Assembly: GCF_964204645.1 (NCBI RefSeq)
Contig: NC_134033.1
Location: 9,494,655-9,558,654 of the forward strand
Reading direction: 5' to 3'
Source of the DNA: Tubulanus polymorphus
Lineage: Eukaryota; Animalia; Nemertea
Length of the DNA stretch: 64,000 nucleotides
Positions 1-55,979 of the stretch are shown in pieces. The translations under genes and the position numbers were made by a program. The notes below the pieces were generated by a model. It worked only from the letters and a program-made list of their open reading frames with translations. It made no database searches and was not told the DNA's origin. Position 1 is the first letter of the stretch. Each line of letters opens with the position of its first letter.

Positions 1-669
1 ATTGTATTATCTAGCGTTGTTAAAGATATGGGTTATAAATTATCGAATATATGTTTAGAATATAACACAGTAACTAATGAAAATATTGCTAGCACAATTC
101 AAACTCAATACAATCAAGGATTTTCATTATTATATGATTATATTGATAAATTTAAAACTGTAACTATTAATGCAAATGATGAAATAATTAATGAGAATAT
201 TAACTTTCCTAGAAGATCTATTAAAGGTATATTAATATTTTTTACCATTGCAACATATTCTAATGGCGCAATAAATGTTGATAATTATTATAATCCTGAA
301 ATAACAAAAGTAGAAATAACTATCGAAATAATAGCAAATAAAATATTTTGCCAAGGAATGAGAATGATAGACCAATGGCCAGAAATTAGAAAACATTTTA
401 TGAATGAAAAAGTAAAATCATCTGAAAATTGTAATATTAATCAAATTGATTATTATACCGGTAATAAATATGCATTATGGTTAGATTTTAGAACAACAGA
501 GGATAATTCATTACATGGTTCTGGGAAAAAACTACAGAACACTAAAGATGGAATACAATTATTCATGAAAAAGAAAAAAGGAAGCTTAAATTTCAAAATG
601 CACATTTATATTATATCTGACGCACAATTAAATATTGTAAATTCACAATTAGATAGTATTCAATATTAG
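1..669 (+). CDS. Polinton major capsid protein (double jelly-roll), C-terminal part, 5'-partial
   Basis: Frame open from base 1; YKLSNICLEY, YYNPEITKVEITIE, ALWLDFRT..DNSLHGSG, DAQLNI resemble invertebrate Polinton MCPs; directly upstream of integrase. Confidence 0.7.
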   Translation: MVLSSVVKDMGYKLSNICLEYNTVTNENIASTIQTQYNQGFSLLYDYIDKFKTVTINANDEIINENINFPRRSIKGILIFFTIATYSNGAINVDNYYNPEITKVEITIEIIANKIFCQGMRMIDQWPEIRKHFMNEKVKSSENCNINQIDYYTGNKYALWLDFRTTEDNSLHGSGKKLQNTKDGIQLFMKKKKGSLNFKMHIYIISDAQLNIVNSQLDSIQY

Positions 670-699
670 AAATATAAAGTTAAAATTAAGGATATATAA

Positions 700-1797
700 A
701 TGAGTGGTAAAAAAACTCCTAATACTAAAGAACAATATTTAAGAAATTTATATTACAACCCTGAGAGTTCGGTTGCTTATTCTTCTACTAAAAATATATG
801 GCGTAAAGTAAAACAAGATAAATTAGATAAGATAATCCCACAAAATTTAGTTAAATATAAAGATATAAATGAATTTATGTTAGAACAACCAACGTATACA
901 ACACATAAAAAAATTGTTAGAAAATATAAAACTCGTAAAACTATGGTAAGTTATGTAGATCAACAGTGGCAAGGAGATTTAATTGATATGAAAAATCTTA
1001 AAAAAGATAATGATGATTATTGGTGGATATTGAATATAATTGATATTTTTAGTCGTTATGTATGGAGCTTCCCACTTTATAGAAAAGATGCTGCACAAAC
1101 ATCACATGTTTTAAGAAAATTTCTTTCAGGTGGTAAACTAAAACCAGAAAAAATTCAATTTGATAATGGAAAAGAATTTGATAATTCATTAGTTCATGGA
1201 CTTTTAGATTTTCATAATATTAAATATTTTTCAACAAAATCGGATAAAAAAGCAGCAGTTGTTGAACGATTTAATAGAACATTAAGAACAAGAATGTGGA
1301 AATATTTTACAGCAAATAATACTTTTAAATGGATTGATGTTTTACCAAAATTGATAGAAGGATATAATAATTCTTATCATTCTTCTATTGGAATGAAACA
1401 TATTGATGCTAGAAAACCTGAAAATGCTGAAATTGTTTGGAATAATTTATATGGAGCATTTCTTGTAGATGATTTTGGTGAACCTAAATTTAAAGTTGGT
1501 CAAAATGTTAGAATTTCTAAGTATAAAAAGATATTTGACAAAGGATACGATCGAAATTTTACTAGGGAAATATATAAAATAAAAAAGGTAATAACAACAA
1601 AACCATATGTCTATAGATTAGAAGATTTAGATGGTGAAGAAGTTGATGGATATTTTTACGAAGAAGAATTAAGTTTAACTACTGAAAATCTAGAACAAGA
1701 ATATAAAATTGAAAAAGTACTAAAAACAAAAACTGTTAAAAGAAAAAAATATTCTTTAGTAAAATGGGTTGGATGGCCAGATAAATTCAATGAATAG
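700..1797 (+). CDS. Retroviral-like (rve) integrase with C-terminal chromodomain; premature TAG removes last ~10 codons
   Basis: WQGDLID, IIDIFSRY, IQFDNGKEF, AAVVERFNRTL (DDE core); YKIEKVL..LVKWVGWP chromodomain; frame continues past TAG 1795-1797 to TAA 1825-1827. Confidence 0.95.
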   Translation: MSGKKTPNTKEQYLRNLYYNPESSVAYSSTKNIWRKVKQDKLDKIIPQNLVKYKDINEFMLEQPTYTTHKKIVRKYKTRKTMVSYVDQQWQGDLIDMKNLKKDNDDYWWILNIIDIFSRYVWSFPLYRKDAAQTSHVLRKFLSGGKLKPEKIQFDNGKEFDNSLVHGLLDFHNIKYFSTKSDKKAAVVERFNRTLRTRMWKYFTANNTFKWIDVLPKLIEGYNNSYHSSIGMKHIDARKPENAEIVWNNLYGAFLVDDFGEPKFKVGQNVRISKYKKIFDKGYDRNFTREIYKIKKVITTKPYVYRLEDLDGEEVDGYFYEEELSLTTENLEQEYKIEKVLKTKTVKRKKYSLVKWVGWPDKFNE

Positions 1798-1827
1798 ATA
1801 TTATCAAGTAAAATTAAAAATATATAA

Positions 1828-2436
1828 ATGAATAAGGAATTATTTATATTTGAGCCTCATAATATGTTAATTTCTGGTGTAACAAATTGTGGAAAAACTT
1901 ATTTTATATTAAATTTATTAGAAACTGTTTACAAAAACTATTTTGATAATATAGTATTATTTTGTCCAACATATGAATTTAATCAAACTTATGATAGAAA
2001 CATTACTAGAAATAATAAATTTATTATATTAGATCCTAAAACAGTAAAAGAAAATTTAGATAATTGTATTAAAATAGCAATTGATATTTATAAAGGATCA
2101 AATACATTATTCATTATAGATGATTGTGCTAATCTACATGATTCAAAAGTTAGAGAAAGTGAGTTATGCTATTTAGCTTTCTCTGGGAGACATTTTGGGA
2201 TAACAACTTGGGTTTTAAATCAAAAATATAATTCAATTGTTAAAGACTTTAGAGAAAACATTAGATTTCTAGTTTTATTCTACAATAAAGATAGAAAATC
2301 GATGAAAAATGCACTCGAGGAAAATGATATTATTCCACATGATTTACATAATGAATATATGGATGAGTTGAAAAATATTAAAAGATCAAAATTACTATTT
2401 AGATTACAACACCCATTTAAATATGAATTTATTTAA
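1828..2436 (+). CDS. A32-like (FtsK/HerA) DNA packaging ATPase
   Basis: Walker A SGVTNCGKT, Walker B LFIIDD, GRHFGITTWVLNQ motif. Confidence 0.92.
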   Translation: MNKELFIFEPHNMLISGVTNCGKTYFILNLLETVYKNYFDNIVLFCPTYEFNQTYDRNITRNNKFIILDPKTVKENLDNCIKIAIDIYKGSNTLFIIDDCANLHDSKVRESELCYLAFSGRHFGITTWVLNQKYNSIVKDFRENIRFLVLFYNKDRKSMKNALEENDIIPHDLHNEYMDELKNIKRSKLLFRLQHPFKYEFI

Positions 2437-2439
2437 ATT

Positions 2440-2690
2440 CAATTAGTTTGTTAATCTAGTTGAATTCTAGTTATTAGTAGTTGTAACAAAAATCCAAAAA
2501 TCAAATAGATTTAACAATATTTTAACTAGCTTGTTAATCTATTTTAATTCTAGTTACATTCTAGTTGAATTCTAGTTGTTAGTAGTTGAAACAAAAATCA
2601 ACTAGATTTAACAATATTTCAACTAGCTTGTTAATCTAGTTGAATTCTAGTTACATTCTAGTTAAATTCTAGTTGCAACATCACACAACT
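2440..2690. repeat. Intergenic array of CTAGTTGAATTCTAGTT-type short repeats and imperfect palindromes
   Basis: Repeated ctagtt/gaattc words; ~100-bp direct repeat (about 2490-2560 vs 2593-2660); hairpin caactagatttaacaa...ttgttaatctagttg at about 2599-2642. Confidence 0.8.
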
Positions 2691-2708
2691 AATTTTTTTG
2701 TTATATAA

Positions 2709-3308
2709 ATGGTAGGTGAAAAGAAAATAAAATCTAAAAATGTTCCAATTGAAAAAACTTTAGATGATTTAGGAATAACAGAAAACAAATTAATTCCAGA
2801 TGATGGTGCTTTAAATAATGTTACAACAAATAATAATTATGAATATTATCTTTATTGTAAACATCAATTAGAAATATTAATAGCATCTGGAAAATGTAAA
2901 AATTTAGTCGGTAAAAATTTAACTTATAATGAATTAGATACAATGAAATCAGATGAAATTATTAGATTATTTAAGATTTATGAAGCCGCGAGAACAGCTA
3001 GAATTAATGACGCGATATCAGAAAATGTAGTAAAAGGTTATAGTAAATTATGTAATTATATACTACCAATTGAAGATGAAAATAGATTATATTCCGATTT
3101 AAAAAATGATTATTTAGTTATGACTGAATTAAATAAATGGATTGGATATTTATCATTTCAATTAGGCGGATTTATGACATTATTATCAACTGGGGTTATA
3201 ACATTTTCAAATATTGAAAGTAAAAATATTTCTATAATAAATGAGCGAGGTGAAAGAAGTGAAGGAATTAACTGTGAAGAAAAAACCGAGAACTCAGAAA
3301 CAAATTGA
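2709..3308 (+). CDS. Polinton hypothetical protein
   Basis: 199-aa ORF, TAAATG start, viral base composition, hydrophobic segment near C-terminus. Confidence 0.7.
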   Translation: MVGEKKIKSKNVPIEKTLDDLGITENKLIPDDGALNNVTTNNNYEYYLYCKHQLEILIASGKCKNLVGKNLTYNELDTMKSDEIIRLFKIYEAARTARINDAISENVVKGYSKLCNYILPIEDENRLYSDLKNDYLVMTELNKWIGYLSFQLGGFMTLLSTGVITFSNIESKNISIINERGERSEGINCEEKTENSETN

Positions 3309-3609
3309 ATGGTCTCGACAATTAGGAATTAAATCACAAGAATATAAAAAAGCTGTAAAAGAAAAAATAAGTAATAAAAATGTTAATAAAAATGGTGAAA
3401 ATATTGTTATTTCTACTCCTTCTGATAGTAGAATATTTGATAAATATTTATATTTTACAGTTGGATTTGTAATTGTATTCATTTTGATTGGGTGTAATTG
3501 GTATAAGAAATCAAATAAAATTCATGATATTAGTAATTCTGAAACAACTGCTATCAAAAATGAAAATACTTCTGAAATTCCAAAATTGATAATAAAAAAA
3601 ATGGATTAA
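3241..3609 (+). CDS. Polinton small membrane protein (basic N-terminus, one TM helix)
   Basis: TAAATG start; YLYFTVGFVIVFILIGC hydrophobic stretch. Confidence 0.7.
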   Translation: MSEVKEVKELTVKKKPRTQKQIEWSRQLGIKSQEYKKAVKEKISNKNVNKNGENIVISTPSDSRIFDKYLYFTVGFVIVFILIGCNWYKKSNKIHDISNSETTAIKNENTSEIPKLIIKKMD

Positions 3610-4583
3610 TATTTTAGAAAAAAAGCAAAAAAAAATAATCGAATATCTCACTACTTTTGTCTATCTATGCGGAGCAATTAAATTGTCCAGATAAGTCATT
3701 TCGGATTCTAGATATTCATTATTTTTATTAATTTATTTTGTTTTTATTTGAATATTTGAATTTGTTAAACAATTAACATAGTAATTGATTACTAATTTGA
3801 TTAAAAATTATATCATAATGAAGTTAAAAATACATAATTCATTTATCAGTTTTCATTCTTACATTCTTTTCATTCGGAATAATTTATAATTTCAAATTTC
3901 ACATATTTTTTTAGCACCAACAACATTTACTTAGGTGTTTTAGCTAAGTATATAAGGCAATTCATTCAACCACTGGAGTAGCTCTGGCCAGCAGAGGCAT
4001 TTTGAAAATGCACCTTCGTCCACTCTCCGGGTTTCTCCTTCGGTTTCGAATTTCGAGGTTGGTAGAAATTACATTAGGCGCCTTTAATATAATGTGATTT
4101 CTACCAATCATTGAAGGAGATCCCGGTTGACGTGGGTCTCCGGGGGTGTAAGTAGAAATGACGGGGGATAAGCGTCCCGTGGCGCCTTTCAATAATGGGA
4201 TGCTTATCCCCTGAAAACTCTGTAGGTCGAGGATAGGGCAATTTTGCTAAAACTTACCGTAAAAACATTGAAATATTCCTTTTAATCACGAGAGAATGAT
4301 GACTATCCTCCTGTCGTCACGGCCGAGCTAATTTAAATAAACCTCGTTTTCAGCAACTAATGAAAACGCAGTAATTCAATACCAGCTAACTGGCTTGTGT
4401 GTGTTGTATGTACTGCGTGCTTATTATAACAACAACGTTGTGCAACACCTGTTTGATTAATCAATATTCAAATGAAGCACTCTCTTATAATAATATGTAA
4501 CAGATGTACTGTATGATTGTAGTTGTTTATAAAACGACTAAGGTCATTTTGGATTCTAGATATTCATTATTTTTATTTTTTAT

Positions 4584-4910
4584 TTAATCAACAATTTCTA
4601 AATCATGATGACCGTCTTCATTTTTCCCATGATATATTATTTTAAATCCTACTAAATCTTTCAATTCCTCCATACTCAATGAAACCCATTTATCGGGTAA
4701 AAACACTTTAAATTCTCGTGATGTACTAACATTACAGTAGCTTAAATTAGCTGATACTTTCTCTCCATATTTAGTTTTTATCTTTTCTAATTTCAATATT
4801 TTATGTTCAATTTCTTTTGTAACATCAACTAACTTTTTTATTTCAAATTGTTTTTTTGTTGGTTTTATTCTGTTATTTATTGTTGCTAAGAATGCTTTTC
4901 TATCTCCCAT
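4584..4910 (-). CDS. Small conserved Polinton protein, homolog of 53383-53736 (possibly nucleic-acid binding)
   Basis: Shares KKL..., TKYGEK/NKYGDK, FLPDK/YLPDR and YHGKNEDGHHDLE/YKGKNEKGHHEID with the copy D ORF. Confidence 0.75.
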   Translation of the reverse strand: MGDRKAFLATINNRIKPTKKQFEIKKLVDVTKEIEHKILKLEKIKTKYGEKVSANLSYCNVSTSREFKVFLPDKWVSLSMEELKDLVGFKIIYHGKNEDGHHDLEIVD

Positions 4911-5173
4911 TTATTAGGAAAAAAAATTACTTGTGGTGATGAGTGGTGTCTCGTCCTCTGATCTGAAAACGCCATCTTCTAATTACTCATGTCAATAACC
5001 ATGAGTACGCACCAGTATTTACTGACGCATCCTCCCTCGGCAGGGATTCCAACCTGATGGCATCGCTACACTCAGCCACGACACGAACCCCTGCCACACT
5101 AGACTGGGTGCTCAGGTACATGCGCAGCTTTGCCGCACGAAAACCTGCGGCACCAATCATATTGCTCGTTGTG

Positions 5174-8749: not shown

Positions 8750-9751
8750 TTAAACGGTCACTTCTTTGTCTGACAACTTGATCCAATTAGGCATAAAGAA
8801 ATCTTCATATTTAAACATGACATCTGCCCACGAATATTTTTTGCGTGCACTGCCGTAGTAAATGGTCGTACCATTGGCTAAAAATGCTGAAAAAAATCCG
8901 AACGAACCAGTAGTCAAAATTGTGTGGTTGCATTTCGATAATATTGCCATATCAGTTATTTGATCATGTCCCTCAGAGTAAATGGTTCTATCGGCAAGTC
9001 CAACGTTATTTTTACACCACACTATATCATTGCTGCAAACTACAAATACAATATTATTGTATTTGCGTTTCATGATTTCGAATGCTCGATGAAAGTAGTC
9101 ACGTCCTGCAGTTTTCATGCCTCGATTAGTCCACCGTTTATTCATTATATCTCCACGACGAACATGAACCCCTATGTACGTATATGGTTGACTTGATGAT
9201 GGCCCAGCCTCGATTTTTGCAACAGAATTTTGGATGAAATCAGCTGCATTTTTGTCTATGTTATCAACAAATCTGAATTCTTGACGGATGACATCTGCCA
9301 TGTACGAGAAGTATCTCCAAGACTGGAAATATCCATCTAATAATAGAGTTCCTTTTTTTGGCAGCAAAAAATGCTCCCTGGAATATTGACAACAATGTTC
9401 CTTATATGTTGTGTCACCATACATCAGCCATGAGTCATAAAGCCACCGGCTTATCGAACGAGCCTTACTGATCTTAAAATACTTCCACAAAACCGCATCA
9501 TCAACAAGATATATATCTGGTTTTCTCACTGACGACTCATAAGCGATGCCTAACAATGAGGCATACTGGAACATGTTGTTGCCTAGCCTGTCCCTTATCT
9601 TAACTGTCATGGCGTAATCGCCTAGTGATGAATTTTCAAATTCATATTTCCGTTTGTATTTGTGTAGATAGATTGTTGTTAAAAGGGTTACAACAATAAT
9701 GAGAAGAATTAAAGCACGCTTAATCCGACGAGATATCACTATATCATGCAT
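8750..9751 (-). CDS. Galactoside alpha-1,2-fucosyltransferase-like (GT11, FUT1/FUT2 family), host gene, single coding exon
   Basis: Type II N-terminal TM; RLGNNMFQYA, GYFQSWRYF, GVHVRRGD, DMAILSKCNHTI..GSFG motifs; polypyrimidine-CAG splice acceptor at 9779-9795 just upstream of the ATG. Confidence 0.92.
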   Translation of the reverse strand: MHDIVISRRIKRALILLIIVVTLLTTIYLHKYKRKYEFENSSLGDYAMTVKIRDRLGNNMFQYASLLGIAYESSVRKPDIYLVDDAVLWKYFKISKARSISRWLYDSWLMYGDTTYKEHCCQYSREHFLLPKKGTLLLDGYFQSWRYFSYMADVIRQEFRFVDNIDKNAADFIQNSVAKIEAGPSSSQPYTYIGVHVRRGDIMNKRWTNRGMKTAGRDYFHRAFEIMKRKYNNIVFVVCSNDIVWCKNNVGLADRTIYSEGHDQITDMAILSKCNHTILTTGSFGFFSAFLANGTTIYYGSARKKYSWADVMFKYEDFFMPNWIKLSDKEVTV

Positions 9752-10177
9752 GGTTCTTAACTTTAAAATTCAGCATATCTGAAAATGAAAAAGAATTGTA
9801 CATCAGTTTTAACAAAAAACTTGACCCGTTGCTAAGGTTGTTTATAAACTAAATCCTCAGATAAATCCGAAGTTAACAGTACAGATACAATCACTATGTC
9901 AATTATGTTTCTATGCCAACTGCAAAACATGGTCTTGTCCACTCTGTCCGACATATTATCAGTTTAAAACAATATTATCCTGGAGCAGATTCAGGGGCTG
10001 ATTTTGATTGGAGCGCTCAACAAGAGGCCCACGGGCACAGTGGAAGTAGAATGATTCAGTATTCAAGATTTTACAGACAGATGTTACCAAAATGTTCTTT
10101 CTGTTGATATATCCTCACATGAAAAGAAAACAAAGCCAAGCCCATTTTAGCTGCCCCAAAACATTTACAACATGAAA

Positions 10178-10950
10178 CTAGGGGTCCAGGGACACCATGC
10201 CCACTTGGGAAGTGGTTTCAAATGCTCAACAATCTAACAATTTCAATATTCAACGCCCCCTGGTGACCATATACAAAAACCAATGACCTTGAAACTAACC
10301 ACAATCATAGAACATGTCAGCAGCTACGATTTTGTAATTGACTGTGATAACAAAATAAGCCTCGTTACCAATTTAATATGGAAATACTAAGTTATTCAAC
10401 TATTCAACGCCCCCTGGTGACCATATTCAAAACCCAATGTCCTTGAAACTCACCACAATCATTGAACATGTCATGAGCCAAGCTACAACTTTGCAATTGT
10501 TCATGGTAACAAAATATGCCTAGGTACCAATATAATAAGGAAATACTTAGTTATTCTATTATTCAACGCCCCTAGTGGCCATATAGAATAACTAATGTCC
10601 TTGAAACTCACCACAATCATAGACGATGTCATGAGCTACAAATTTGCAATTGATTGTGCTAATAAAATATGCATTGGTACAAATATAATATAGAAATACT
10701 AAGATATTGTATTATTCAACGCCCCCCTGGTGGCAATATACAAAAACCAATGACCTCGAAACTCACCACAATCATAGAACACGTTATAAGCTAGAACTTT
10801 CTAATTCATTGTGGTAACAAAATATGCTAAGGTATCAAGATAATGTCGAAAAACATTTTCCCACCTACGAATGAGTACTGATGACACCAAGATGGCCGCC
10901 AATTGCGTCATAATTGGCTGATCAAAAATACCTAACCCAGGTATAAAACT
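10178..10950 (-). mobile_element. Helentron-associated (HINE/DINE-1-like) non-autonomous element, family 1, 5'-truncated, four ~155-bp internal repeats
   Basis: Same sequence as 38258-39290, 46552-47740 and 61664-63073; abuts Polinton copy C at a deletion junction. Confidence 0.75.
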
Positions 10951-11120
10951 GATAAAGTAACTGCTAATGTTAATTTTAAGATATCATTTATATCAAATCT
11001 ATCAACATTAACACTTCCCATTTTGAATACTTTTTTTAATACCATTGAATAACCAACAGTTCCAACTGATAGTAATGCTCCATTATATAATCCAGTTATT
11101 ATCCACTTATTATCACTCAT
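10951..11120 (-). pseudogene. Small hydrophobic Polinton protein, 3'-truncated (intact at 54866-55087)
   Basis: Near-identical to the copy D gene up to LAVTLS, then joins HINE sequence. Confidence 0.8.
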
Positions 11121-11477
11121 TTATTTATCAAAAAAATTACTATCTTCAAAATATTTAGTTATCTTAGTGATGATTAATTCAACATTTATTTCATTACTAG
11201 TTTGATTTGTATATATTTCAATTATTATTTTTTTAATATCATCGATGAAAAAATCTTCACCTAATTCATAAAATCTTAAAGATTCTCTAATTAAATTAGT
11301 AATCTTTTCTACATTAAAAGTTTCTTTATCTATTGTTTTTTCATACTCAAATGTTGTTTCATTAGAAAATGTAATATTTTTGATATGTGTAATTACATCA
11401 TTAATGTTAAATTTCATTTCTTTCTCACGTTTAAAATCAAATCCAAAACATATACTCGGTCCAACAGTTATATTCAT
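11121..11477 (-). CDS. Polinton hypothetical protein (homolog of 54523-54858)
   Basis: MNITVGPSICFGFDFK...NEINVELII shared by both copies. Confidence 0.75.
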   Translation of the reverse strand: MNITVGPSICFGFDFKREKEMKFNINDVITHIKNITFSNETTFEYEKTIDKETFNVEKITNLIRESLRFYELGEDFFIDDIKKIIIEIYTNQTSNEINVELIITKITKYFEDSNFFDK

Positions 11478-11493
11478 TTATATAATGAAAAAA

Positions 11494-12241
11494 TTACTCT
11501 CTACATCTTATAAATAATTCATATATCACAGGAAAGTTATTCAAATTAATTAAATAACCATTATGATTTCTTATTTCTAATCTAAAATTATTAAAATGTG
11601 GAATACAAGGTTTGAAATCACATTCAGTTAAATTATAATTTATTTGAGTTCCAAATTGTTTGACAATGGTAAAATATTAATAAACCAGAATTACAAATTG
11701 TATCTTTAGTTGCTTCGAATGTTTTTGTAGGATCAATTAAATTACAATAAATATAGTAGTGCGTAAAAGGTATTATATTTGGTGTAGTATAAACATTTGA
11801 ATAAAGTATATTTGGATTAACTCCTAGCATTTTAGCTAATGGTTTTCTTACTGCGAATTTATATTGTTCATTGGTTAAATTTATTCCTATTTTATTAGTA
11901 CTATCAATTTTATTAAATTTAATGTTAAAATTGGAATCACCTCTAATTTGTATTCGTGCTTTTCTATTAATTTCTTGAGCTAATGTTTCTAAATTATATT
12001 ATCCTGGTGTTAGCATAAGTTGAACCCATTTATGATTATTTTTATTAAAAATTAAGAAGACTCTATGGTCATTAGTTTTATCTGATACATTATAAAAAGA
12101 GTTACATAAACTTATATTTACTAATTTCAAATCTACACAATTCTTAAATTCTCTATCTAATTGTACTAATAAATTATGAGATTTATAATTTGTAAGTCTT
12201 CTAGAATCAACAAATATTCTGCATTCTTTTAATTCTACCAT
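11494..12241 (-). pseudogene. Minor capsid (penton-like) protein, frameshifted
   Basis: Fragments 11999-12241 and 11633-11830 plus C-terminal FRLEIRNHNGYLINLNNFPVIY; homolog at 53754-54505. Confidence 0.65.
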
Positions 12242-12299
12242 TATTTATAACATAAAAAAATTACCACTCATCACCACAAGTAATTTTTTTCCCTAATAA

Positions 12300-13575
12300 A
12301 TGGATGAGAAGATACCATGTGAAATTTGTGGTGAACTTCTAAGAAAAAGTAATATGGCTCGACATATGAAAAAACATGATGAAAATTATAAACCCCCTAA
12401 ACTAAACTGTCCAAAATGTAATAAATAATTCTCAAGAAATTATGTTAAAAAACATTCAGAGAAGTGTAAAATTAATGGCGCAACGGCTAATGTTGATAGT
12501 AATGAAAGAAATAGTAATTCTGCTGAAGTTGAACCTGAAGTTATTTGGAAAAGTCCTTTCTTATTCTATGATAAGGATAATATAAAAGATTATTTCTGTG
12601 AGCCTTGTCTAATGAAATATAGCCCTGAAAATATAGAAGATTGGGAGAATCATCAATTTCGTAAAGCACATATAGATAAAATTTCTAATAAATTTGAAAC
12701 TGAATTCAATGAAAGAAAAAATAATTTATTAGAAAAAATAAAATATGAGAAAACGTTACCAGATAATAAAGAAACATTTGAAAAGTTAGAAAAACAATAT
12801 AATGAATTAACAAGAAAAACATATTATTGTAAATATTGTAAATTGATTATTACAACAAGTAATTCAAATCTACATAATAGAACAATAAAACATAAAGAAA
12901 ACGTAAGAAAATACCAGGAGCTTAATGAAGATCTATTACCAATAAATTATAAACGAAAATGTCCACAATGTAGTTATGCGACCTTAAGGCAAGAAGGTAC
13001 TGTGTTATTTTGTAATGAATGTGGATGGCAAAAGAATTTATGGAGTGAAGAAAAAACTAGAAATTTTCTCATAGATCCAAAATTAAATTATCTAGATGAA
13101 ATTTTTAAAATATTTTCTATAGAAGATCATACACCAGAATATATGCAATGGCTTAAAAAAATGAAAATAATAGAAAATAAAAATGGTGAAATAACTAAAA
13201 AAGATATTATAAAAACAATTATTCCGTCAACATTTAACACAAAACAAAAGAAAATGTATTAAAAAATATAAAAAAAATATTCAAACAAATATTAATGTAT
13301 CATTTGGAAAATAGAATAACAGATCAATAAATTATGAATTCTTTTTAAATAAGATTGTAAATTATTTAAACATAGATATTATAATTCCATGTGATGAATT
13401 AACAAACAAAAAGAAACAAAGAGAGCGAGATGAAATGTGGCGCAAGATAGAACTTTATTTAAATAAGAAAAATGAAAAGGAAGAAGAACCTAAACAAATT
13501 ATACAAGAACAATTAAATGAAAATGAAGAAGCCAATAGTGATTTCGATTATGATGATATTGATTTCATGTTTTAA
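12300..13575 (+). pseudogene. Zinc-finger protein fused to a poxvirus VLTF-3 (A2)-like late transcription factor domain; one nonsense codon and three small indels
   Basis: ATG 12300 is in frame with ORF 12612-13262 across TAA 12426-12428; CPQC..FCNECG ribbon, NFLIDPKLNYLDEIF; after frame repair IFKQILMYHLENRITDQINYEFFLNKI...RDEMWRKI; acidic tail; stop 13573-13575. Confidence 0.7.
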
Positions 13576-16500
13576 TGTCCATAAGGTAATGTTTTTATAC
13601 CATCATCTGAAATATGTCTTTTATCATCAAATGGATTTAAACTAGTTTTTTCAACTTCATTAATATACATCTCGTGATCTTCTGATCTTAAACAATTCAT
13701 TTTGTGTTTCATTACAATTGAGTTATATAAACACTTTATATAATCTTGAAATTCTATATGTTTATCAACCACATGTTTTGTTATTCCTTTTAACTTTTTA
13801 GCTTCATGATCTTTTGTTCTATAACTGTACATTTTACTTCTTATCCCAACAAATTCAATCATTTCATCACCCCCTAATTCATCTTTAAACTTACCAGGAA
13901 TCTTTTTTTTATCATTGCTAAATAGTTCATGATCTTTGGGATAATTGCTAAAATCAAAATGATTTTTTAATGTTTTTAAGTCTTTTGTTATGTCATTTGT
14001 CTTGATTTTTAGTATGTACGCGTCAGTATTGAAGCAAATTAATGGAAATCCACAGTTAAATGTACCATCTTCAGTTGATAAATCATAAACATAATCTGAT
14101 GGGTTATATATTTCAAATAAATCTTTAACTTCTTCAGTTAAATCTTTTTCTGTGTGGCTTAGATTAAAGCAATTTGGTTTAGATTTAATCAATCCAATAT
14201 TCATATTGAAGCCTAATGAATTACATAATATATTTAACCCTGATATAGCAACTTTTCCTTTCTGTGCAAAGGTTATCTTTTTATCCTTTGTAAATTTTTT
14301 AGCACCTTCTGCTGCATAGAATCCAATGAAGAACCATTTTCTTAAATTATTTTTTGCATTTAATACATAATCTGGAACTATCTTTTCTTTTGTTGAAGTA
14401 TTACTTTTCACTATTGCATGAATATAGAATTTATCATTATATTTTATAGCAAAATCTTTAGGATTATTTACAAGTAGTCTATAAACTGCTGATGATTTCA
14501 TAACATCCATGATTCTAAATGTTTTATGTGAATAAACTTCTTCACAGAATTTCTTAATTCTTTCTAATAATTTTAAGTCTTGATTGCATAAATACCAACA
14601 ATATTTATTACCCCAAACATAATTATACACACCTGCTCAACCATCACCCATGAAAAATCCTTTGATAAAATATTCTTTTTCTTCTAATGTTTCGGGTTCT
14701 ATATTATAAATATTATCAATTATTTCATCAAATGACATATGATTCATTCTTTGGAAAAATCTTTTATGTAATAATTCATCTCCAATTTTTATATCAGTTG
14801 GTTTTATTTCATCGCCATTTCGTTTAATTAAACTATGATCTTCTGTAACATCTACAAATCCTAATTTAGTTCTAACTCTATAGATTTTCTAATTTGTTTT
14901 ATGCCTTATAATATTCTTTAATTTTTTCCATCCATTTCTTGTCCAAACATCCATTAATCCATTTATTTGTATTAATTCTTTTTCACCATATGAAATATAA
15001 CATTCATTTTGTTTTGGAATTATTTCTGAAATTCTTCTTACCAATATTTTATTATTACATTTTAATAATATTGGGGTGTCAGCTGTTACAGAATCAAAAT
15101 ATAATATTTCAATATGCTTTTCCCCAAAAAGTGGTTGTAAAACATTATAATAAAAATCATACATTAATAATTTTGATACTTCTAAAACAGTTGAACCAAT
15201 AAATATAGGTTTATCAAATTTCATTGACGTTCTTTTTAATTTAACTGCTGTTAAATAATCTTCAAATCTTTTATTTCCTAAATGTCTAGGATTGTAAATG
15301 TCTTAATCTTTCAGAATTATTTACTAATTCAATATCATTTCTATTTCTAATATTTTCACATGTTTTACCATAAAAACTATTAATCATTAATTTGAAGAAA
15401 TCTTTTTCAAAATCTGTTTTAGATATGGTTCTCTGTTGAGTATTGAAATCTATATATTTTTCTAACCACTTTGATTGATTAAATTCAATATATCTATGTA
15501 CTTTCTTTAATTTCATTCCTTGTTTTAGATAAAATTTTAACATTCTATAATGAACAATATAATTGTATTTATTATTTTGAGTAAGTATTAATTTTTCTGT
15601 AAAAACATGATCTTTCGGTTTTATTTTCTTCTGGTATTCACTTAAATAACTATCATCTACAGTTAAATGTTCTGGGCAATAAGGTAAGTTTCTTGTTTTA
15701 AACTTTATTTTTTCAGGATATTCTAAATCAACTACAAAGAAATAACCAATTGGTGCTTCATCATTTTAAACTCGCAATTGCGCTTTCCCAATCAGTTTTA
15801 TCATCATTTTCAACTTCTGTTAATATAAAATTTTTATATGGTTGAGGTTGCATCATTGCCCAGCCATATAAATTATTGGCGTCAATATATAATAATTTAT
15901 ATTCATCATTTGCTTTAAAATATCTATCTCCCATAACACCACTAATTCCACCTCTAATTGATTTTTCAAATAATAAAACCATATCTGGTTCTTTTAATAA
16001 ATCTAATTCTACATTTGTATATTTTAAACCACATTGCCAGGTTAAACCAGGACTTGAATAACAATAACAAGGATCAACATTAAAATGATTTAAATTAACT
16101 TCTCTAAATTTTTCAAATATGTCAGCCAATATCATAACATCTGATTTAAAATATAAATCAACTAATTCACCATGATTTTTCATCTTAAAATGGTTCCAAA
16201 TATTTAATGTTCTATTAAACAGTTCATCTTTCACATACTCCTCTTTTAATTGATCATAAAATTGATCTTTTAATAATTCTGTTACATTAAAATCATTGTG
16301 TGTTTTATAAAATGAATAAGGAATTGCGCCTTTATATCTCAATAATTTAAAATCTTGGTCATTTGGATAATAATATCGAGTTATAACAAAATCATTATCA
16401 ACTAAACTTTTTGATAAATTATCTAATGAACTTGCTAGAAATCTATAAGAATCTAAAAATCTAATGCAACCAAATTGAAATGAAATGTAATTTTCAGATG

Positions 16501-18632
16501 TTTTAGCTAATAGTTTAAAATCATATTTTCTTACATTTACACCATTCATAGCATTATATTCTTCTATTTCTTGATTAATTGAACCCAATTTCCTTGATAA
16601 TTGTTTTATAAATAGATGGGTATCATAACCTGATAAATTATGAAATAATATTGGCACGAAATTAACTTTCTTAGCTTGTAAATTGCAATCTTCATGAGCA
16701 GCTCCACGATATTTTGAATTTAAATGATCATGATCTCTAACTTTTTTATCAAATGAATAAAAACGTTTTTCACAATAACAACAATGAGTTGCATAATTAA
16801 AATCAATTTCATCTTCTTTTGTCATAACTATTCTTTTATTTTTGTTTAATAATTTTGCAAAATCACTTTCTAATTCAATCATTTTATCACAAAAATCATT
16901 AACTACATTTTCACCTCTAAAAGAAATATATTGACTTTCATATAATTCAGGATAATTTCATTTTATATAAATTCCATAAGCAGCAGCTCTTTGATGAACT
17001 TTTTTAATTGTATTTATAATTGGTGGGTCTTGTATTGTGTCTTCATTAAATTCATTTCCTTTATCCATTGATTTTAATAATTGTTTTTTGTTATATATTT
17101 CTTTTCTATCTTGATCAGTTAATTCTTTATTCAACGATTCAAAATCCCCATAAATTACAAATGGAACAATATTCTTAAATTTATGATTAGTAAATTTCAA
17201 TTCATAATCTTTTTCTGTTGGCATTATTAATTTACAAAAATCTTTATTATCACATAATTCTTTATGTTTTAATAATGTATTCTCTGTCATAAATTTAGAT
17301 AAACATTTTCTACATAGATAAATTCTATGATGATGATCACTTTCTGTTCTAAAGAATAAATCAATTTGTTTTAACCACATATAATGTTCATTTTCATCTT
17401 TTTTGTAATATAACAAATCTATAGCATTTTCATCATCATAATATTCTGTTAAATATAAAGCTTCCAATGTATAATCTTTAATATTTTCACCTTTTGTCTT
17501 TGGTAATTGCATTAATTCAAATACATTTATTTTTAAATTATTAACTTTTTCTATTTTAGGAATCATTTTTATAGTTACTGGATATTGATCAATTTTATAT
17601 AATGTTTCATATTTCCGGAAATTTGTTATTCTAAAACTATGCGTCATATCTTCTGTTGGGTGTAAACAACTAATAATTGACCATAGAAAACATTTATTAT
17701 CTTCATTTTGAACATTTATTACTGCTTTTGTTGTAAATGGTAATTTAATATAAGATGATGCTTTAATATCCTTTTCTGTTGTAAAGTTTGAATCATTTTT
17801 AAACATTTTATTACTTTTTGATGTTTTATTCCTTTTTGTATTGTAAACATTTAAATCTAAATATATAATTTCATTCAATGTTAAGCCAGAACCCTCAAAA
17901 TATCTTTCTTCAATATGACGTTAAAATTCATAAAATATTTTTTCTAACTTCTCTTTTATTTGCGTTTTTGAAATTATTTCTTCAGAGAGTGTTTGAATAT
18001 TATAATCCATTTTTTCTTCTGACTTTATAAAACTTACTTTCCCAGAGATACTAATTTTTGGATATTCAACATCTGTTATCAAATCTAGTATTTTTTCTAT
18101 TTTTTCATTAAATTTACTATAATCTTCTATTGTTGTACCTTTAAAAAATCTAAATATAATAGCCGCAGGACCAATTTTACTATGTAATGTTTCTAAAATT
18201 TCAATTGTATCTTTTATTTCTAGTGAATCAATATAATTTCTAACATTTTCCATGTAAGGTTTATTTGAAATGGATTTAGTTTTTGAATTTGTTTTTTTTT
18301 ACTTTTTGAGGTTTATCGTTAAAATAATCTTTTCCTAAAACATTATTACTCAAATTTTGGTGGTGTTTTTGTGATTCGAGATGTCTATTATAATTCCTTT
18401 TTACTATAAATTCATTACAGACTTCACATTTTATTTCATCCACATTCATATTTTCTAATCGTTCTTTTCTTTCATTGGAATTTTCTGAAGTTTCAAAATC
18501 TATAACATTTTTTATATGATTTGAAGATTTTTCATGATGCGATTTTTGAGATTAATCAATGTATTTTTTACAATATGGACAATAATATTGATTTTCATTT
18601 ACATCAATTAGTTCTGTCTTATTCTCTTCCAT
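13572..18632 (-). pseudogene. Protein-primed family B DNA polymerase (pPolB), intein-containing, several stops and frameshifts
   Basis: N-terminal zinc fingers; YGDFES, FHNLSGYD, FLDSYRF exonuclease motifs; DANNLYGWAM, KLMINSFYGK, YFD|TD, KLKGI polymerase motifs; RDHDHL..YRGAAHEDCNL endonuclease VII-like insert. Confidence 0.95.
14028..15092 (-). mobile_element. Intein with LAGLIDADG homing endonuclease in pPolB motif C (1065 bp, 355 codons, two in-frame stops)
   Basis: Block A SVTADTPILL, block B VTEDHSL, FIKGFFMGDG and FFIGFYAAEG, block F YVYDLSTEDGTF, C-terminus ICFN|T; absent from copy D (YFDTDS). Confidence 0.93.
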
Positions 18633-18689
18633 TTATAAGGAAAAAAAATTGCTTGTGGTGATGAGTGGGGATTACTTCCCCTTGTATAT

Positions 18690-18915
18690 AACAAGCACGC
18701 TATTAACCGTTCTCACCCAAGCCTCACAGCATCTATTTATCTGGGCACAGTTGACACGCAATCACTGTACTACTACAGTAATAGCAGACGCGTTAATAAC
18801 CGTTCTCAGTAGAGACTCACTGTATCGATCTATCCACGCGCAGATGTTGTTACGCGCACTCACTGTATATGTGTGTCACAGAGCAATCGTCCGTTCTCAC
18901 TAGAGCCTAGCTGTG
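18690..18915. repeat. Subterminal imperfect ~95-100-bp repeats of Polinton copy C
   Basis: ccgttctcac/ccgttctcag...ctcac recurs at about 18707, 18800 and 18891. Confidence 0.55.
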
Positions 18916-23212: not shown

Positions 23213-24971
23213 TAACGATGTAGTGCTAGATATAATTCATGAGCTACATTTTGAAAATTGTTAGATTGATTGGTGGAAACAATTGATCAAAGCGTATTCA
23301 ACATTTCCCATTCAAAACCTCTGCAAAAGTGCCGATTTTGCCGCACTTGACTAAAGTCGGCCATCTTGATTCCGATCATGCTGTAGAAAAGGTTAAGGGT
23401 ACAAACATACATAACTAACTACTAAGACCATACATACAAGCATATCGAAAACTTTTAGAAGACTAACAAAATATCATTTGATTTGAAATAGCGATCATAG
23501 AACAGATTAATAGGATTGTTAAACATGTTCAATAAATACGTCCAATCATTATCCGACAATCGATGAACGGGCTCTATCAAGATAAACTTGTAATTATATC
23601 CATGAAACGACTTAAGACACTTCATGCAACGAAGTTGAATTATAAGATAAGGTTGTTTAAATGTGGTTTCTTTGTTATGACCAGTACTGAATCTGTCCAC
23701 AGGATGACTGGCACATGCGGAGTGTTTAGGTATACAACTAAGTCCTTTCTGTCAAGTGAGTAGTAACGATGCAACCATGGCCCGCATCTGAGGGCCTGCG
23801 GCTGCCGTTGTTCTGTACGCATCATATGCGAAGGAAGGTTTATGCACATGATTTATACCCTCCTCTAAACAAATGACGCAAATCTGAAAGTTTATCAAAC
23901 TATTTAGCTCAAATTCATCAAAGTAATTTACACTGTTCAATGTGTTTAGTAGCCATTATTATCACTTTCCCTGATTGGAAATAATCAGAGCAATCCTCTT
24001 TTTGACTGACGCAGAGACCAATCTCAAGGCCGTCTGGTAAAATAATGAATTTTGGGATTAGTGATAAGCGAATGGCAAATCCTTGATCTAGTTCGGTGTC
24101 TTTTTTTTCGTTGCGAGATTAATTCAACGAAAACATATTCGAAAAATTCTAGCCCACGCATTCAGAGCATTATAATGATCATTGCATTGATTAGAGTATC
24201 TATTACTGATCAGTAGTCGAATCTGAGGATACATATTTTGTCAAAAATATAGTGGATAAATCAGATGCGGATCCAGGGGGTGCTTTGGGTGTTGCAGCAT
24301 CCCCCCTAAAGCCAACCGCACATGTTTGCTATATATTTTATGGTCTAATGCGATCATACGCCGATACAATGGTCATAAGTCATCAATACTTTTCCAATGC
24401 CATCATTTTTCCTGCATCTAAAGCCCGCCGTACACCTTTGCGATTTATTGTATGATCCCTATTTGATCAGATATAAAATGTAGGTTCATTGTATTATCGA
24501 TCATATGCAATTTTTCCATGCGAAAATAATCGTAAATGTGTGCGAGCTTATATTACGTTGTGGATATCTTTATTGAAAGCCATTCAGAATTCTCGATGAA
24601 GCAGTCATTTGGACTAATAGAGGAACCAATAGATGGTACGTGTTTTGTTATTTGAGGTGCAATCAACAGTACAGGAAGGCATAAAGGTCAGATGATATCT
24701 GTAACAATCGTCGCTTAGTAAATTCTGTAGCGCCCATTTTTATTTTCTCACGCTGTTGCCTGACATTCGGGTATCAAATTTCAAATTCAATTCTGTCTGT
24801 CTGGCACGCGCTTTGAGACGACCTCGGGATTCATGCATTTCACTTTAATTGATAATTAGTATTATGTATTAGTAATACACTTATCTATGATGAACTTGAG
24901 CAAGTAAAATAATCCAGTAGAGGCCATCAGTAAGTACTTTTGTGTCCTATTAAACCAGTCGGTCAAAAGAA

Positions 24972-25205
24972 CTAGGGGTCCAGGGAAATCATGCCCACTT
25001 GGGAAGTGGTTTCAAATGCTCAACAATCTAACAATTTCAATATTCAACAACCCTAGGTGAACTACAAAAACCAATGACCTTGAAACTCACCACAATCATT
25101 GAACATGTCAGTTGCTACCATTTGTTAATTGATTGTGATAACAATATACCAATATAATAAGGAAATTCAAAGTTATTCTACTATTCAACACCCCTTGGTT
25201 ACCAT
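24972..25205 (-). mobile_element. HINE family 1 fragment (3' end)
   Basis: ctaggggtccagggaaatcatgcccacttggga end plus about 1.5 internal repeat units. Confidence 0.75.
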
Positions 25206-25364
25206 ATGGAATAAGTTATGTCCTTTCTCACACAGTAACTTTTCGATGTCAGAATTTTCAAAAGTAAAACACCCCCTGGTGAGTGAACGGGGTCCCCAAT
25301 CAAAGATCCATTCAACTTACCCTAAAGGTACCTGTGTTCCATACATCTCACAAAAGTTTAAAGT

Positions 25365-26226: not shown

Positions 26227-26894
26227 AAATCAGTACAATTACAATAGGGTTTCTGCGAAGGCAGCAGAAACCCTAAATACAAGATTCCCACAGATTGGCC
26301 AATATCATTTTCCATACCTTTTCCATATTTTTCCCATACATAGATTATAAATTTTCCATACCACTAAGTTTTACATTGCCAACCTGGGATTTTTCCTCGT
26401 TACACCTAGAAACAGACCGCCCATAAGTTGTTATTCCACCGCGAATTGGCGGCACTCGTTGGATAAATCATGTGAGAAGGGTGATAGAATGCTTCCTCCT
26501 TGGTTTTAATGCCATTCAACAGCATTTGATCAAGGTGAGTACCGTACTATTCTTTCAATGTAATGTCTTCTAGGAATCAATTTTTTCATGTACGCTAAAT
26601 ACTACGAAGCCATCCATTGATTGCTCACTAACTGGCTGTCAAATCATTTGAGGTATTAACCCTTTCGCTACGTGTGACGTTTTGGAAACGTCATATGAGT
26701 GACACGTGCTGTGCGTATGACGTTGTAGAAACGTCATGCACCTATTGATTTATAACTCGAACGCGTACACAGCAAACAGTATGGAAACGCATGTAAGACA
26801 AGATAGTTAGCTTTCTAAACAACAGATGGCGAAAATGCGTCAGTAGTTGGTGCTGTCAGCCTGTTGAGCACATGGTAATTTGCGCGGGATTGAG

Positions 26895-29654
26895 ATGGCT
26901 GCTCGAAAGAAAGTTTTCAGTGCTAATCAAGTTTTAGGCAAGATTTACGCCGACGACGACAGTGAAGATGACGATTTAGATGACGGGGTGATTTCGGACT
27001 GGGCGGAGACGACTCTTGGGACGAAGATGACTATGCCCTTGACCTCGATGCCGATTTCAACTTTGATGAATTCGAGGAGTTGGATCAGCCTCAACCAGGT
27101 ATATGCCTTTAGGCAATCACAAAACTCTATTACATAAAGCTATAATGACGATGATAAGATGACCCGGTTGTTTTATCTATTTATTTTTATTTCAGAAGTG
27201 TGCAGCACTGATGATAACGTATTGGATTTAGAAGAGGAAGGAGACCAGGATATTATACAAAGACAAGAGTGCACTTTCGGTGAGTCATACATATAATTGC
27301 TCAAAAGTGGTACAGCAACTTTAGAGATGAATGAATATATAGATATATAAATGAATACATAAATACACGAATAACAGTTTTATTGTCTTTAAGGCGATGC
27401 CCAACAATCGACATCGGCCCCTCCAGTCTTCAATCTTTTTTCGCCCGACCAACGCAGAGTTCCCGCTGTGCCAGATTCTCCAGAAACTCCAACACCACGT
27501 CCAGTTCAAAAAAGTACTTTTCTTCTTACTCCATGTGGTGCAATTGTTCTGCAAAAAAATAATCATTTTGAAAACAAATAAAAATATTGTGTGTTGAACA
27601 GTTTATTTTTCTCTTCAGAAAAACGTAAAGTCACAACACCACCAGCACCAAGGCCAGAACCTCTGGTGAAGATACGCTGCACAGATACAACACCTGTGAC
27701 CACCGTTTCAGCACTGAGGCAACATCCTCCACCAGTTGCATCACAACCTGTTCCAAGACAGCCCACACATGCTCCACCTGTGGTACAACCAGTTGCCCAA
27801 CAGCCAGCGCCAAGAAAACAAGCTCCCCCTCTGGTACAACCTGTTGCCCAACAGCCAGCGCCAAGACAACAAGCTCCCCCTGTGGTACAACCAGTTGCCC
27901 AACAGCGAGCGCCAAGACAACAAGCTCCCCCTGTGGTACAACCAGTTGCCCAACAGCGAGCGCCAAGACAACAAGCTCCCCCTGTGGTACAACCAGTTGC
28001 CCAACAGCCAGCTCCAAGACAACATGCTCCTGCCGGCCGTCGGATGCGAGCTGATGATGCTCCCTGGTTTTGGGAACGAACTGAAAACTTTCGTCCAAAA
28101 GCCATCCCATTCACTGGGGAAGAAAAACTTCTCGTTGATATGCCACAGGGAGCTAAACCGATTGATTATTTTTCCCTATACCTTACTGAAGAAATAATAG
28201 CACACGTGGTCACCGAAACAAACAGATATGCCCAACAATTCCTGACAGCTAACGAAGACACCCTGAAGCGGCGATCCAGAGCCAGGTTATGGGAGCCAGT
28301 CGAGCAGGCTGAGATGAAGACATTCCTGGCTCTTCTCGTATTACAAGGAATTGTATATAAACCGAGAATCAACATGTACTGGACACAAGAAAAGCTTGTG
28401 GCTACTCCAATTTTTGGTGAATGTATGAGTCGTGATCGGTTTCTGAACATTTTAAAATTCTTACATTTCGCAGATAATGAAGCAGACGGCTATGACCCGA
28501 GAGATCGTGATAGAGACCGACTTTATAAGGTTCGCCCATTGGTTGAAATGTTTCAAACACGATTCCGAGAGGTATATAGCCCGGGTGAAAACCTTAGTAT
28601 CGACGAGTCGCTGTTGCTGTGGAAGGGTCGCTTGAGTTTCAAACAGTTCATTGCCACAAAACGTACACGTTTTGGCATAAAATTTTTTGAATTATGCACA
28701 ACAAAGGGAGTCACCCTTGACCTACTAGTTTACGTAGGGGCAAACACACTCCCTGTACAGCCTCCAGAGATTGCGGCTCTGAACGTTTCCGAGCAAATAG
28801 TCATGCATCTGATGAGAAATTACCTCCAAAAAGGTTACACTCTGTTCATTGATAATTACTACTCATCGCCATCTTTAGCGGCATTCCTGCTGAAGAAAGG
28901 AACGTACGTTGATGGCACGGTTAGAGCGAATCGTCGCAACTTTCCAAAGGAATTGGCAGACCTCCAAATTCAGAAAAATTCATCAGTATTTTTCAAGGCT
29001 CCGGATGAGAACGTTTTGGCCGTAAAATTTCGGGCACATGTTGATAAAGCTAGTGGGAATCCAAAGGTAGTCCATCTCCTCACAACTAGGTTTCCAGCGA
29101 GAGTGGACGATACAAGGAAGAAAACGACGAACGATGTTGCAATTTGCAAACCCACTTGTGTATTGGCCTACAACAAGCATATGGGTGGAGTCGATATGGT
29201 GGACCAGCAACTTCACTACTACCAAGTCATCCGCCGAACGATGAAATGGTATAAAAAAGTAGCAGTCAGGCTGGTGATGCAGGCCCCCCTAAACTCCCAT
29301 CGGATGTTCGAACTACAGGGTAACAAGAAGGATTTCCTTGGGTTTATACATGATGTGCTCGACGTGATGGTTATCACAAGACCAATGATTGCTCGTAATG
29401 TTACCCGTGATGAAGCACTGACCCGTCTCACTGGCCGTCACTTTCCAATGAAGCTTCGACCACTTGGAAGGAAGACCCAACAAAAACGATGCCGCGTATG
29501 CTATGCACGAAATGATCTTGGGCGAACTGGGCGGCCAAAGGACACTATCTGGGTTTGTAAGACTTGCCCTTCTAGACCGGGTCTACACATCGATCAGGAT
29601 TGCTTCGAAGTGTACCACACAAGATTGGACTATTCAACATTTGATGCTGAATGA
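26895..29654 (+). CDS. piggyBac transposase (PGBD4-like), predicted exons 26895-27098, 27196-27279, 27394-27513, 27619-29654; 1-nt frameshift in exon 1
   Basis: SIDES, FIDNYY, GGVDMVD catalytic motifs; C-terminal CRVC..CKTC..H..C..H; GT-AG introns in phase 1; acidic N-terminus. Confidence 0.88.
27725..28030 (+). repeat. 51-bp coding minisatellite (PPVVQPVAQQPAPRQQA, about 6 units)
   Basis: Visible tandem units in DNA and protein. Confidence 0.93.
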
Positions 29655-30370
29655 ATAATTTCTAACTGTCGACTTCGCTAGAAATGATTTGCATGTAGAA
29701 AACACAATATTTGTTTGACTTACCATTATGTTTTGCGGACTGCATGCAAGATGTTTTGTTTTTTTTGTCATTGTAATTACTGTTGCGTTGCTTTTACTGA
29801 AAAATAAAAGATAATTAGTTTGCAAAATCTCAATTTGATTTTTAGCCTCCCCACTTACGTACCTCTACCAGCGGAAAAGGATATCCCATATCAATTGAAT
29901 TTCTTTCATCCACACCGTAGCATCAATCACCAAAGAATGAGATAGGCACTTGGGTGAAAAACTGAAAAAAAAAAATTTCTAACCCATCCTGACCCCCCCC
30001 CCCAACACGCCCCCCCCCTACAGAAAAGGCTGTTGGTATGATTTTTTACTGATTTTCACTAAATAACATCATAATCTTCGATAAAAACGCGAAAAATCGG
30101 GGTTAAAAACAATTTGAAAAAAATCGAATTTTTCGGAAAATACCTATCGTACGGGGCGGTGCAAGCGTGTACGCAGCGAAAGGGTTAATCACGTGAAATA
30201 AAACCTTTGGCTCATTGGCTAAGCCTGGGGGATCCGAATGACGATATCAGTGAGGAAATTCCTTCACTTCACTGATTGGCTTAGCAATTTGTTTGTAAAG
30301 AAGTTTTGACAGATAACACGTGCATTACGTTATCTATACACTTTAAGGTTACGATCTTATTTATTTACAG

Positions 30371-49155: not shown

Positions 49156-49429
49156 CTTAAAATATTCATATATATGAATAAAATATAAATGAATAACATA
49201 TATAAGTAACGAGTAATTAACAAGCTCTTATAGAATAGATATATAGATAGATATATTTACAACATTATTTCAATATTCATATTTGTATAAGTTAGATTTT
49301 TAAACATTAAAAGTGTTAGTAAAGTGTGATTGAAATAATGCATAGCTGTTTATACTAGAACATGATTCTATTTGAGCCTATATATCATTGAACTTCTAAA
49401 ATCAATTAAAAAAAAAAATTAGTATTAAA

Positions 49430-53353: not shown

Positions 53354-53382
53354 TCAAATTTTAATAAAAATATGTATTATAA

Positions 53383-53736: not shown

Positions 53737-53753
53737 GAACATATGTAAAATAA

Positions 53754-55975: not shown

Positions 55976-55979
55976 AAAT

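Follow-up and report, generated by a model that had tools for sequence, protein, structure and literature searches.

Polinton pieces in the window and the broken VLTF3 gene

The window, that is, the whole 64-kb stretch of DNA that was analysed, has a background of host-like DNA with 35-45% GC, from which three islands at about 24% GC stand out by composition. These islands can be identified from their sequence as pieces of one Polinton family. PF03175, PF00665 and PF04665 were matched above their Pfam cut-offs in the window, so that the Polinton trio of protein-primed family B DNA polymerase (pPolB), rve integrase and A32-like ATPase is present. The pieces are truncated and no terminal inverted repeats were found flanking them; Rfam gave no match within 10900-18800. 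The features are as follows (positions are those of the window).

1-4947 (about 1-4950), plus strand: Polinton piece with a presumed capsid-like C-terminus, an rve integrase with chromodomain (700-1797), an A32 ATPase (1828-2436) and further ORFs with TAAATG starts
About 10950-18700, minus strand (VLTF3 gene on plus): Polinton piece with pPolB and neighbours, an island of ~24% GC
10944-12241, minus: neighbouring element genes, a broken, presumably penton-like gene and then ORFs of the 118-aa and 75-aa type, matched by L002 ORFs in the same order
12263-12302, plus: putative promoter block of the VLTF3 gene (C-rich core, T-tract, TAAATG over the start codon), divergent from the minus-strand gene starting at 12241
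12300-12425, plus: VLTF3 piece 1, with a C2H2-type zinc finger (Pfam zf-C2H2, E 3e-4, under the cut-off)
12426-12428, plus: premature stop, a lesion (at 12427, 216 of 245 same-species reads disagree with the window)
12429-13262, plus: piece 2, a 277-codon frame with a U1-type finger (~12819-12914), a C4 ribbon (12960-13022) and the first helices of the VLTF3 core
13260-13263, plus: frame break by a longer deletion; reads diverge on both sides and P0001 has extra residues at this point
13265-13321, plus: piece 3 in a second frame, helix IFKQILMYHLENRIT, equivalent to the helix that precedes the INY motif in P0001 and in the A2 of poxviruses
13323, plus: frame break, a lesion (indel in 211 of 234 reads)
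13327-13575, plus: piece 4, with the INYxFFLxKI block, the conserved Trp and an acidic tail; the stop codon of this piece lies over the end of pPolB
13572-18632, minus: broken pPolB (PF03175, E 1.7e-14) with a TAAATG start, convergent with the VLTF3 gene
14040-15092, minus: broken intein-like insert of about 350 codons (~1 kb) at the catalytic YxD-TD motif of pPolB
49400-56224, plus: second copy of the family, 73-83% identical, with TAAATG starts kept

The penton-like label of the broken gene within 10944-12241 is our assumption, and Pfam gave no family match for this gene. Similarly, 1-669 and 53754-54505 of the window, and 4824-6071 of L002, a locus described below, were taken by us to be capsid-like; as major or minor capsid candidates they matched neither Pfam nor NCBIfam. 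An adenain-type maturation protease was not matched by Pfam among the scanned ORFs of L001, L002 and the window, in which the loci are fragmentary and several ORFs unannotated. Two small related ORFs at 53383-53736 (117 aa) and 4584-4910 (108 aa) were without family match.

The intein-like insert is missing both from the pPolB of L001, which is 57-90% identical, in pieces, to that of the window, and from the second window copy. Its family matches were weak (TIGR01445, E 0.076; PF14528, E 0.093) and its middle part is LAGLIDADG-like. Around 14040-15092, loose ends and joints were also seen in same-species reads. Homing-endonuclease and intein insertions are known in polinton pPolBs (PMC11161782).

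The host-like DNA between two of the Polinton pieces holds a single-ORF glycosyltransferase family 11 gene (8750-9769, minus strand, E 1e-38), the start of which is not TAAATG. PiggyBac-type (PF13843) transposase genes were found at 27591-29654 and 36297-38230, one of them open for 687 aa, and 19517-20102 matches the flanks 26656-26900 and 29847-30191, resembling an internally deleted PiggyBac-type copy. A dispersed repeat with internal units of ~150 bp occurs at 10155-10949, 24970-25225, 38256-39025, 46839-47761 and 62002-63084; one copy of this repeat ends the Polinton piece at about 10950.

The VLTF3 gene of the window is split into four pieces across three frames, from the ATG at 12300 to 13575. 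Piece 1 shares 22 of 41 aligned residues with the N-terminus of an intact relative, P0001, and piece 2, which matches zf-U1 (Pfam, E 5.5e-7), is 39-42% identical to it. Piece 2 holds CxxC-x13-CxxC (12960-13022) and NFLIDPKLNYLDEIF, the second frame (13238-13330) carries IFKQILMYHLENRITDQ, and the third (13315-13575) carries INYEFFLNKI, RDEMWRKI and the acidic tail. The motifs thus stand, behind the C2H2 piece, in the order claimed by an earlier, sequence-only reading. Piece 4 is 57% identical to P0001 and reached 22.5-22.6 bits on Pox_VLTF3 (E 1e-4), under the Pfam cut-off of 25.

The lesions of this copy are one stop and two frame breaks. About 90% of the same-species reads disagree with the window at the stop and at 13323, and within 13120-13420 the indel at 13323 is the sole one present in at least 5% of these reads. 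At 13260-13263, 118 reads are unlike the window behind 13260 and 87 are unlike it before 13262/13263, while the junction is covered by about 15. Because the reads diverge on both sides and few span the junction, a longer stretch has been lost here from the window copy. The sequence-only reading had bridged the stop at 12426-12428, rightly, and had postulated three small indels in A-runs near 13252, 13272 and 13326; two frame changes suffice and nothing is listed in the reads at 13252 or 13272. The protein of ~425 aa that it reconstructed has the length of the damaged copy and not that of the intact gene. The window copy is a pseudogene, unable to make the protein.

Only 696 of 13,535 aligned same-species reads were at least 99% alike, which suggests a diverged multi-copy family. 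Read depth over the stretch was about 250 in 1,934 Mb read, a value that stands without a single-copy baseline. A codon-position comparison with L001 gave no clear third-position excess and was uninformative.

An intact relative and the identity of the gene

P0001 is a protein of 697 aa that matched the central window piece with an E-value of 3e-42; its cluster, with three members, was the only true homolog cluster among 1.84 billion proteins. By tblastn, P0001 covers the N-terminal, central and C-terminal parts of the window gene in order. At locus L001 its gene is convergent with an intact pPolB, in the same slot as in the window, and at L002 the VLTF3 gene lies beside an integrase and an ATPase (both matched by Pfam), a deoxynucleoside kinase and the same small ORFs. 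Since an intact relative occupies the same slot by pPolB, the gene is a resident of this Polinton lineage. In the second window copy a 117-aa ORF that is not VLTF3 lies between pPolB and the penton-like gene. As this copy without VLTF3 keeps the same TAAATG starts, the gene can be classed as optional, or accessory, in the lineage.

The kinase gene of L002 (9287-9928, minus strand; PF01712, E 2e-31) is divergent from VLTF3, and two large ORFs at 1943-3271 and 3275-4732 (442 and 485 aa) had no significant Pfam match. A word-index homolog search with the window pieces returned nothing, and one with the P0001 core returned its own cluster only. P0002 was discarded as spurious, being a zinc-ribbon repeat protein. 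When IMG/VR was scanned for loci, none was picked up by the window piece, by P0001, by the ATPase or by the capsid candidate, and no VLTF3 was found in the fetched parts (fragments) of 14 other pPolB loci.

The gene is identified by sequence comparison as a homolog of VLTF3, the poxvirus A2 family, in agreement with the sequence-only reading, which had placed such a gene inside a Polinton; profile, BLASTP, hhalign, Atlas and fold searches concur. The C-terminal 93 aa of P0001 scored 27.0 bits on Pox_VLTF3 (PF04947; E 4e-6; gathering cut-off 25), so the profile check proposed for that reading succeeds with this part of the intact relative; full-length P0001 and its 201-aa core had no Pfam VLTF3 match, and PF08792 was not matched. 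The P0001 core aligned with a chordopoxvirus A2, itself confirmed by Pfam, at a BLASTP E-value of 7e-8 and 21% identity.

Own profiles were built from 22 pox and 24 Megaviricetes-type sequences, and the window copy was read through with X. P0001 scored 25.6 bits on the pox and 0.5 on the Megaviricetes-type profile; the window copy scored 13.1 and 24.3 bits, respectively. The maximum of the shuffle control (200 each) was 7.9 bits. In hhalign comparisons the Polinton VLTF3 reached 96.4% with pox and 95.7% with Megaviricetes-type, and pox against Megaviricetes-type 11%, i.e. the Polinton VLTF3 links to each profile better than these do to one another (96% vs 11%). In the 46-row VLTF3 alignment (alignment A2) the four ribbon cysteines and ten further positions are conserved, the cysteines of the C4 ribbon ahead of the helical core aligning with the pox and the Megaviricetes-type rows. 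Among ESM Atlas hits, 28 of 30 were VLTF3 clusters; the commonest taxon of some of these was Preplasmiviricota, among very few labelled members.

Affinity was assessed with an unrooted tree of 38 rows in three groups, including 24 of 74 full-length Megaviricetes-type sequences (<70% identity), 10 of 22 pox sequences and two divergent rows, and without asfarvirus, entomopoxvirus or mriyavirus rows. The two Polinton rows stand on a long branch of their own outside the pox clade (11 rows, 100/98), with path lengths to pox and Megaviricetes-type that are about equal. A 98/98 split was rejected as evidence for a sister group of pox, since in an unrooted tree of three groups it merely separates the third group. 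Two features judged by eye favour the poxviruses, the short spacing from ribbon to core and the absence of a three-residue insert ahead of the INY block. The profile scores being split, the Polinton VLTF3 appears about equally far from both groups. Capture from a poxvirus, as proposed by the sequence-only reading, is accordingly upheld as to the VLTF3 family and not as to a poxvirus donor or a recent event; the tree places the gene outside the pox clade and, unrooted with three groups, indicates no donor. Because of its deep separate branch with links to both profiles (96% vs 11%), the Polinton VLTF3 may be older than a recent capture.

A structural model was computed from an alignment that contained VLTF3s of pox and Megaviricetes type, which makes the fold matches partly circular; its pLDDT was 82, and the single-sequence fold of P0001 was poor (pLDDT 35). 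The structure check proposed earlier gave cowpox VLTF3 as best BFVD match (E 2e-5, TM 0.71), closely followed by entomopoxvirus, phaeovirus and mimivirus-type proteins, and most named rows of the top 30 were VLTF3. Using VIA-align, the top 14 of 147 chains came from transcription-initiation complexes (Z 8.0-4.3 over ~90 residues, Z of at most 8 being weak for a helical domain), the next, unrelated row scoring 3.9. We take these chains to be TFIIB/TFB/Brf/Rap94. The best PDB match of the family profile was the zinc ribbon of TFIIB (E 4e-4). Foldseek found nothing in the PDB at E 0.001, and no solved A2 structure was found by sequence search. With moderate confidence, given Z-scores that are low for helices, the predicted fold points to a TFIIB-like factor made of a zinc ribbon and one cyclin-like fold.

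A start signal shared by most genes of the lineage

The sequence TAAATG was found at 29 of 30 hand-listed gene starts versus 81 of 908 chance ATGs, the hand list counting the VLTF3 start of L001/L002 twice and omitting two window starts, that at 12241, which deviates by one base, and that at 18632, which matches. Under a uniform rule, TAAATG starts were found for 14 of 17 ORFs in L001 and L002 together and for 3 of 26 in host DNA. In 14 other pPolB loci they were found for 9 of 201 ORFs and for no core gene out of 31. The decayed window pieces gave 10 of 24; on reading, 12 misses were internal ATGs of broken genes and 2 were true starts that deviate by one base. All instances of the motif come from one lineage and from DNA of 24% GC, and many of these starts are orthologous and not independent. 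TAAATG as a stop-start coupling was discarded, TAA being the stop of the upstream gene in only 2 of 29 cases.

The TAAATG starts in L001 and L002 are preceded by a T-tract. Position -18 is A in 97% of starts, positions -14 to -12 are T in 83-86% (T-tract at -14 to -10), and the T at -13, ten nucleotides upstream of TAAAT, is present at 25 of 29 starts. At -3, T is found at 28 of 29 starts; in other pPolB elements this position is mostly a purine (123 of 201).

A block of 41-47 nt, 91-98% identical, is located before VLTF3 (12263-12310), pPolB (18622-18668) and the 108-aa ORF (4903-4947). Shared by these three genes, it is inferred to be a promoter, with a putative function. In L001 and L002, a different C-rich core is common to the starts of the pPolB, VLTF3 and kinase genes. 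Such a core may be an additional element of non-structural genes. At 12241-12300 and at 9928-10001 of L002, the block lies within a divergent intergenic gap of 58-72 bp.

Vaccinia late promoters carry TAAAT(G) over the start codon and a conserved T ten bases upstream (PMC11980589), and TAAATG with T at -13 matches this published consensus, the match being one of sequence only. In the same source, A1, A2, A3 and D13 are tabled as intermediate genes. Among fetched poxvirus A2 neighbourhoods, 36 of 91 ORFs had TAAATG starts versus 20 of 210 ORFs in Megaviricetes-type ones; upstream of these pox starts the DNA is A-rich, not T-rich. Poxvirus-late start motifs in Polintons were not found in print by a literature search with supplements, Repbase and subscription papers outside its scope.

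Proposed transcription of the element and comparison with known systems

Animal Polintons may be nuclear viruses in their own right or may parasitise larger viruses. A lineage-specific start signal of poxvirus-late type on nearly every gene makes the question of autonomy testable and indicates the type of helper to expect.

No RNA polymerase or capping enzyme was found among the element ORFs examined, and no VLTF2 among 396 element frames searched with a pox A1 profile of limited reach (best E 0.21); the polymerase must therefore come from outside. Our favoured reading, held at even odds, is a virophage-like Polinton, transcribed by the polymerase of a pox-like helper that the element's own VLTF3 steers onto the element's starts. 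In the nucleus the element would stay unexpressed, and only once the cell is infected by a pox-like cytoplasmic virus would the post-replicative machinery of the helper start inside TAAAT. Poxviruses use a slipped poly(A) leader. Such a leader would account for the fixation of T at -3, where it is a poor Kozak base. The VLTF3 of the element, with its extra N-terminal zinc fingers, would bias the helper machinery toward element DNA. The sequence-only reading had also suggested that the gene redirects a helper virus polymerase, and this part gains independent support from the poxvirus-late-type gene starts; neither RNA nor a transcript start nor a helper virus was observed, and an RNA run containing the stretch was not found.

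The broader proposal, which we rate at slightly less than even odds, is that an animal-germline Polinton lineage is a provirophage of a hypothetical pox-like virus, keeps all its genes behind poxvirus late-type promoters and brings along a zinc-fingered, TFIIB-like VLTF3 that would draw the helper polymerase to the element genome. If true, these promoters would be a fossil pointer to pox-like viruses in the host group.

A serious rival, though less probable, is that the same gene works with host nuclear RNA polymerase II (Pol II), in which case the TFIIB-like VLTF3 would recruit Pol II to AT-rich starts and the element would be autonomous, as are nucleocytoviricots devoid of a polymerase. The TFIIB-like fold would fit, the element integrates (rve integrase) and a helper is hypothetical. 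Moreover, ariadnaviruses keep VLTF3 without an RNA polymerase, so that VLTF3 need not imply a viral one, and VLTF3 is core in the 35-45 kb mriyaviruses (PMC11253617). Both groups, however, keep VLTF2 as well, which was not detected in the element (396 frames, best E 0.21). Recruitment of Pol II also sits poorly with the use of the same starts by the VLTF3 gene itself and by the copy lacking VLTF3, and with a T fixed at -3 (28 of 29) where a purine is usual elsewhere (123 of 201).

A real VLTF3 that has nothing to do with the motif is unlikely. It would be optional cargo or a decoy, for instance poisoning the initiation complex of a rival virus, and TAAATG would be an AT-driven translation context of the lineage. 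The variability of the slot, filled by another ORF in the second window copy, is in line with cargo, as is the deoxynucleoside kinase that L002 adds alongside, and the correlation of motif and gene comes from one lineage. The spacing of the motif is nevertheless fixed (A at -18 in 97%, T-tract at -14 to -10) and far over background, and a 41-47-nt block common to three unrelated genes is promoter-like rather than a ribosome context. Chance resemblance of a multi-zinc-finger ORF to VLTF3 is scarcely credible and largely refuted: the window pieces alone stay under the Pfam cut-off and full-length P0001 has no VLTF3 match, but the intact C-terminus reaches 27.0 bits, the profile scores lie well above the shuffles, and hhalign, the Atlas and the fold search concur.

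The precedent for such promoter mimicry is the mavirus/CroV system (10.1101/068312), where the promoters of an integrated element resemble the late motif of the large virus and activation by a late factor of the helper was proposed. That system differs in its protist host, in another helper motif and in a factor that comes from the helper; here the factor is element-encoded and the helper hypothetical. Polinton-like viruses (PLVs) carried inside the occlusion bodies of entomopoxviruses (Barth et al. 2024, PMC11296320) are likewise Polinton-type elements proposed to be hyperparasites of poxviruses in animals, but they were found in the occlusion bodies and the main text is without the words 'promoter', 'VLTF' and 'TAAAT'.

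With poxvirus A2/VLTF-3 (PF04947, PF08792) the protein of the element shares the C4 ribbon, the helical core, the INYxFFLxKI block and the late Trp, in order; it differs in an identity of only ~20%, a long additional N-terminal part that bears C2H2 and U1-type fingers, and the acidic tail. Compared with poxviruses, moreover, the element has no VLTF2, polymerase or capping genes that were found, and its motif stands on replication genes too.

VLTF3 has been reported in a polintovirus subgroup of stony corals (Stephens et al. 2024, PMC11131425, citing Krupovic & Koonin 2016), where it is likewise accessory, in Polintons that are integrated in animals and carry pPolB, rve integrase and A32 ATPase. 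The presence of such a gene in a Polinton had thus already been published. The main text of the coral study differs in that 'promoter' is absent and that it gives no fold or mechanism; the comparison with its elements is one of gene content. VLTF2/3 have been called undetectable outside Nucleocytoviricota (PMC11253617), a view that the window locus and the coral data contradict as regards VLTF3. Integrated Polintons carry this marker gene of Nucleocytoviricota in a form missed by standard full-protein Pfam scans.

VLTF3 is also noted in some PLVs (10.64898/2026.06.19.733378; figure legend of PMC8502044). Mriyaviruses (PMC11253617) and the PLVs of the Zephyrvirus cluster (10.64898/2026.06.19.733378) are small double-jelly-roll viruses with VLTF3; mriyaviruses differ in having VLTF2 and an HUH endonuclease too (PMC11253617), and endogenous Zephyrviruses were not detected in the study of that cluster (10.64898/2026.06.19.733378). 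A further VLTF3 gene was met by chance on a 30.5-kb IMG/VR contig (L004, 1691-2767, minus strand), where it forms a long branch among the Megaviricetes-type rows.
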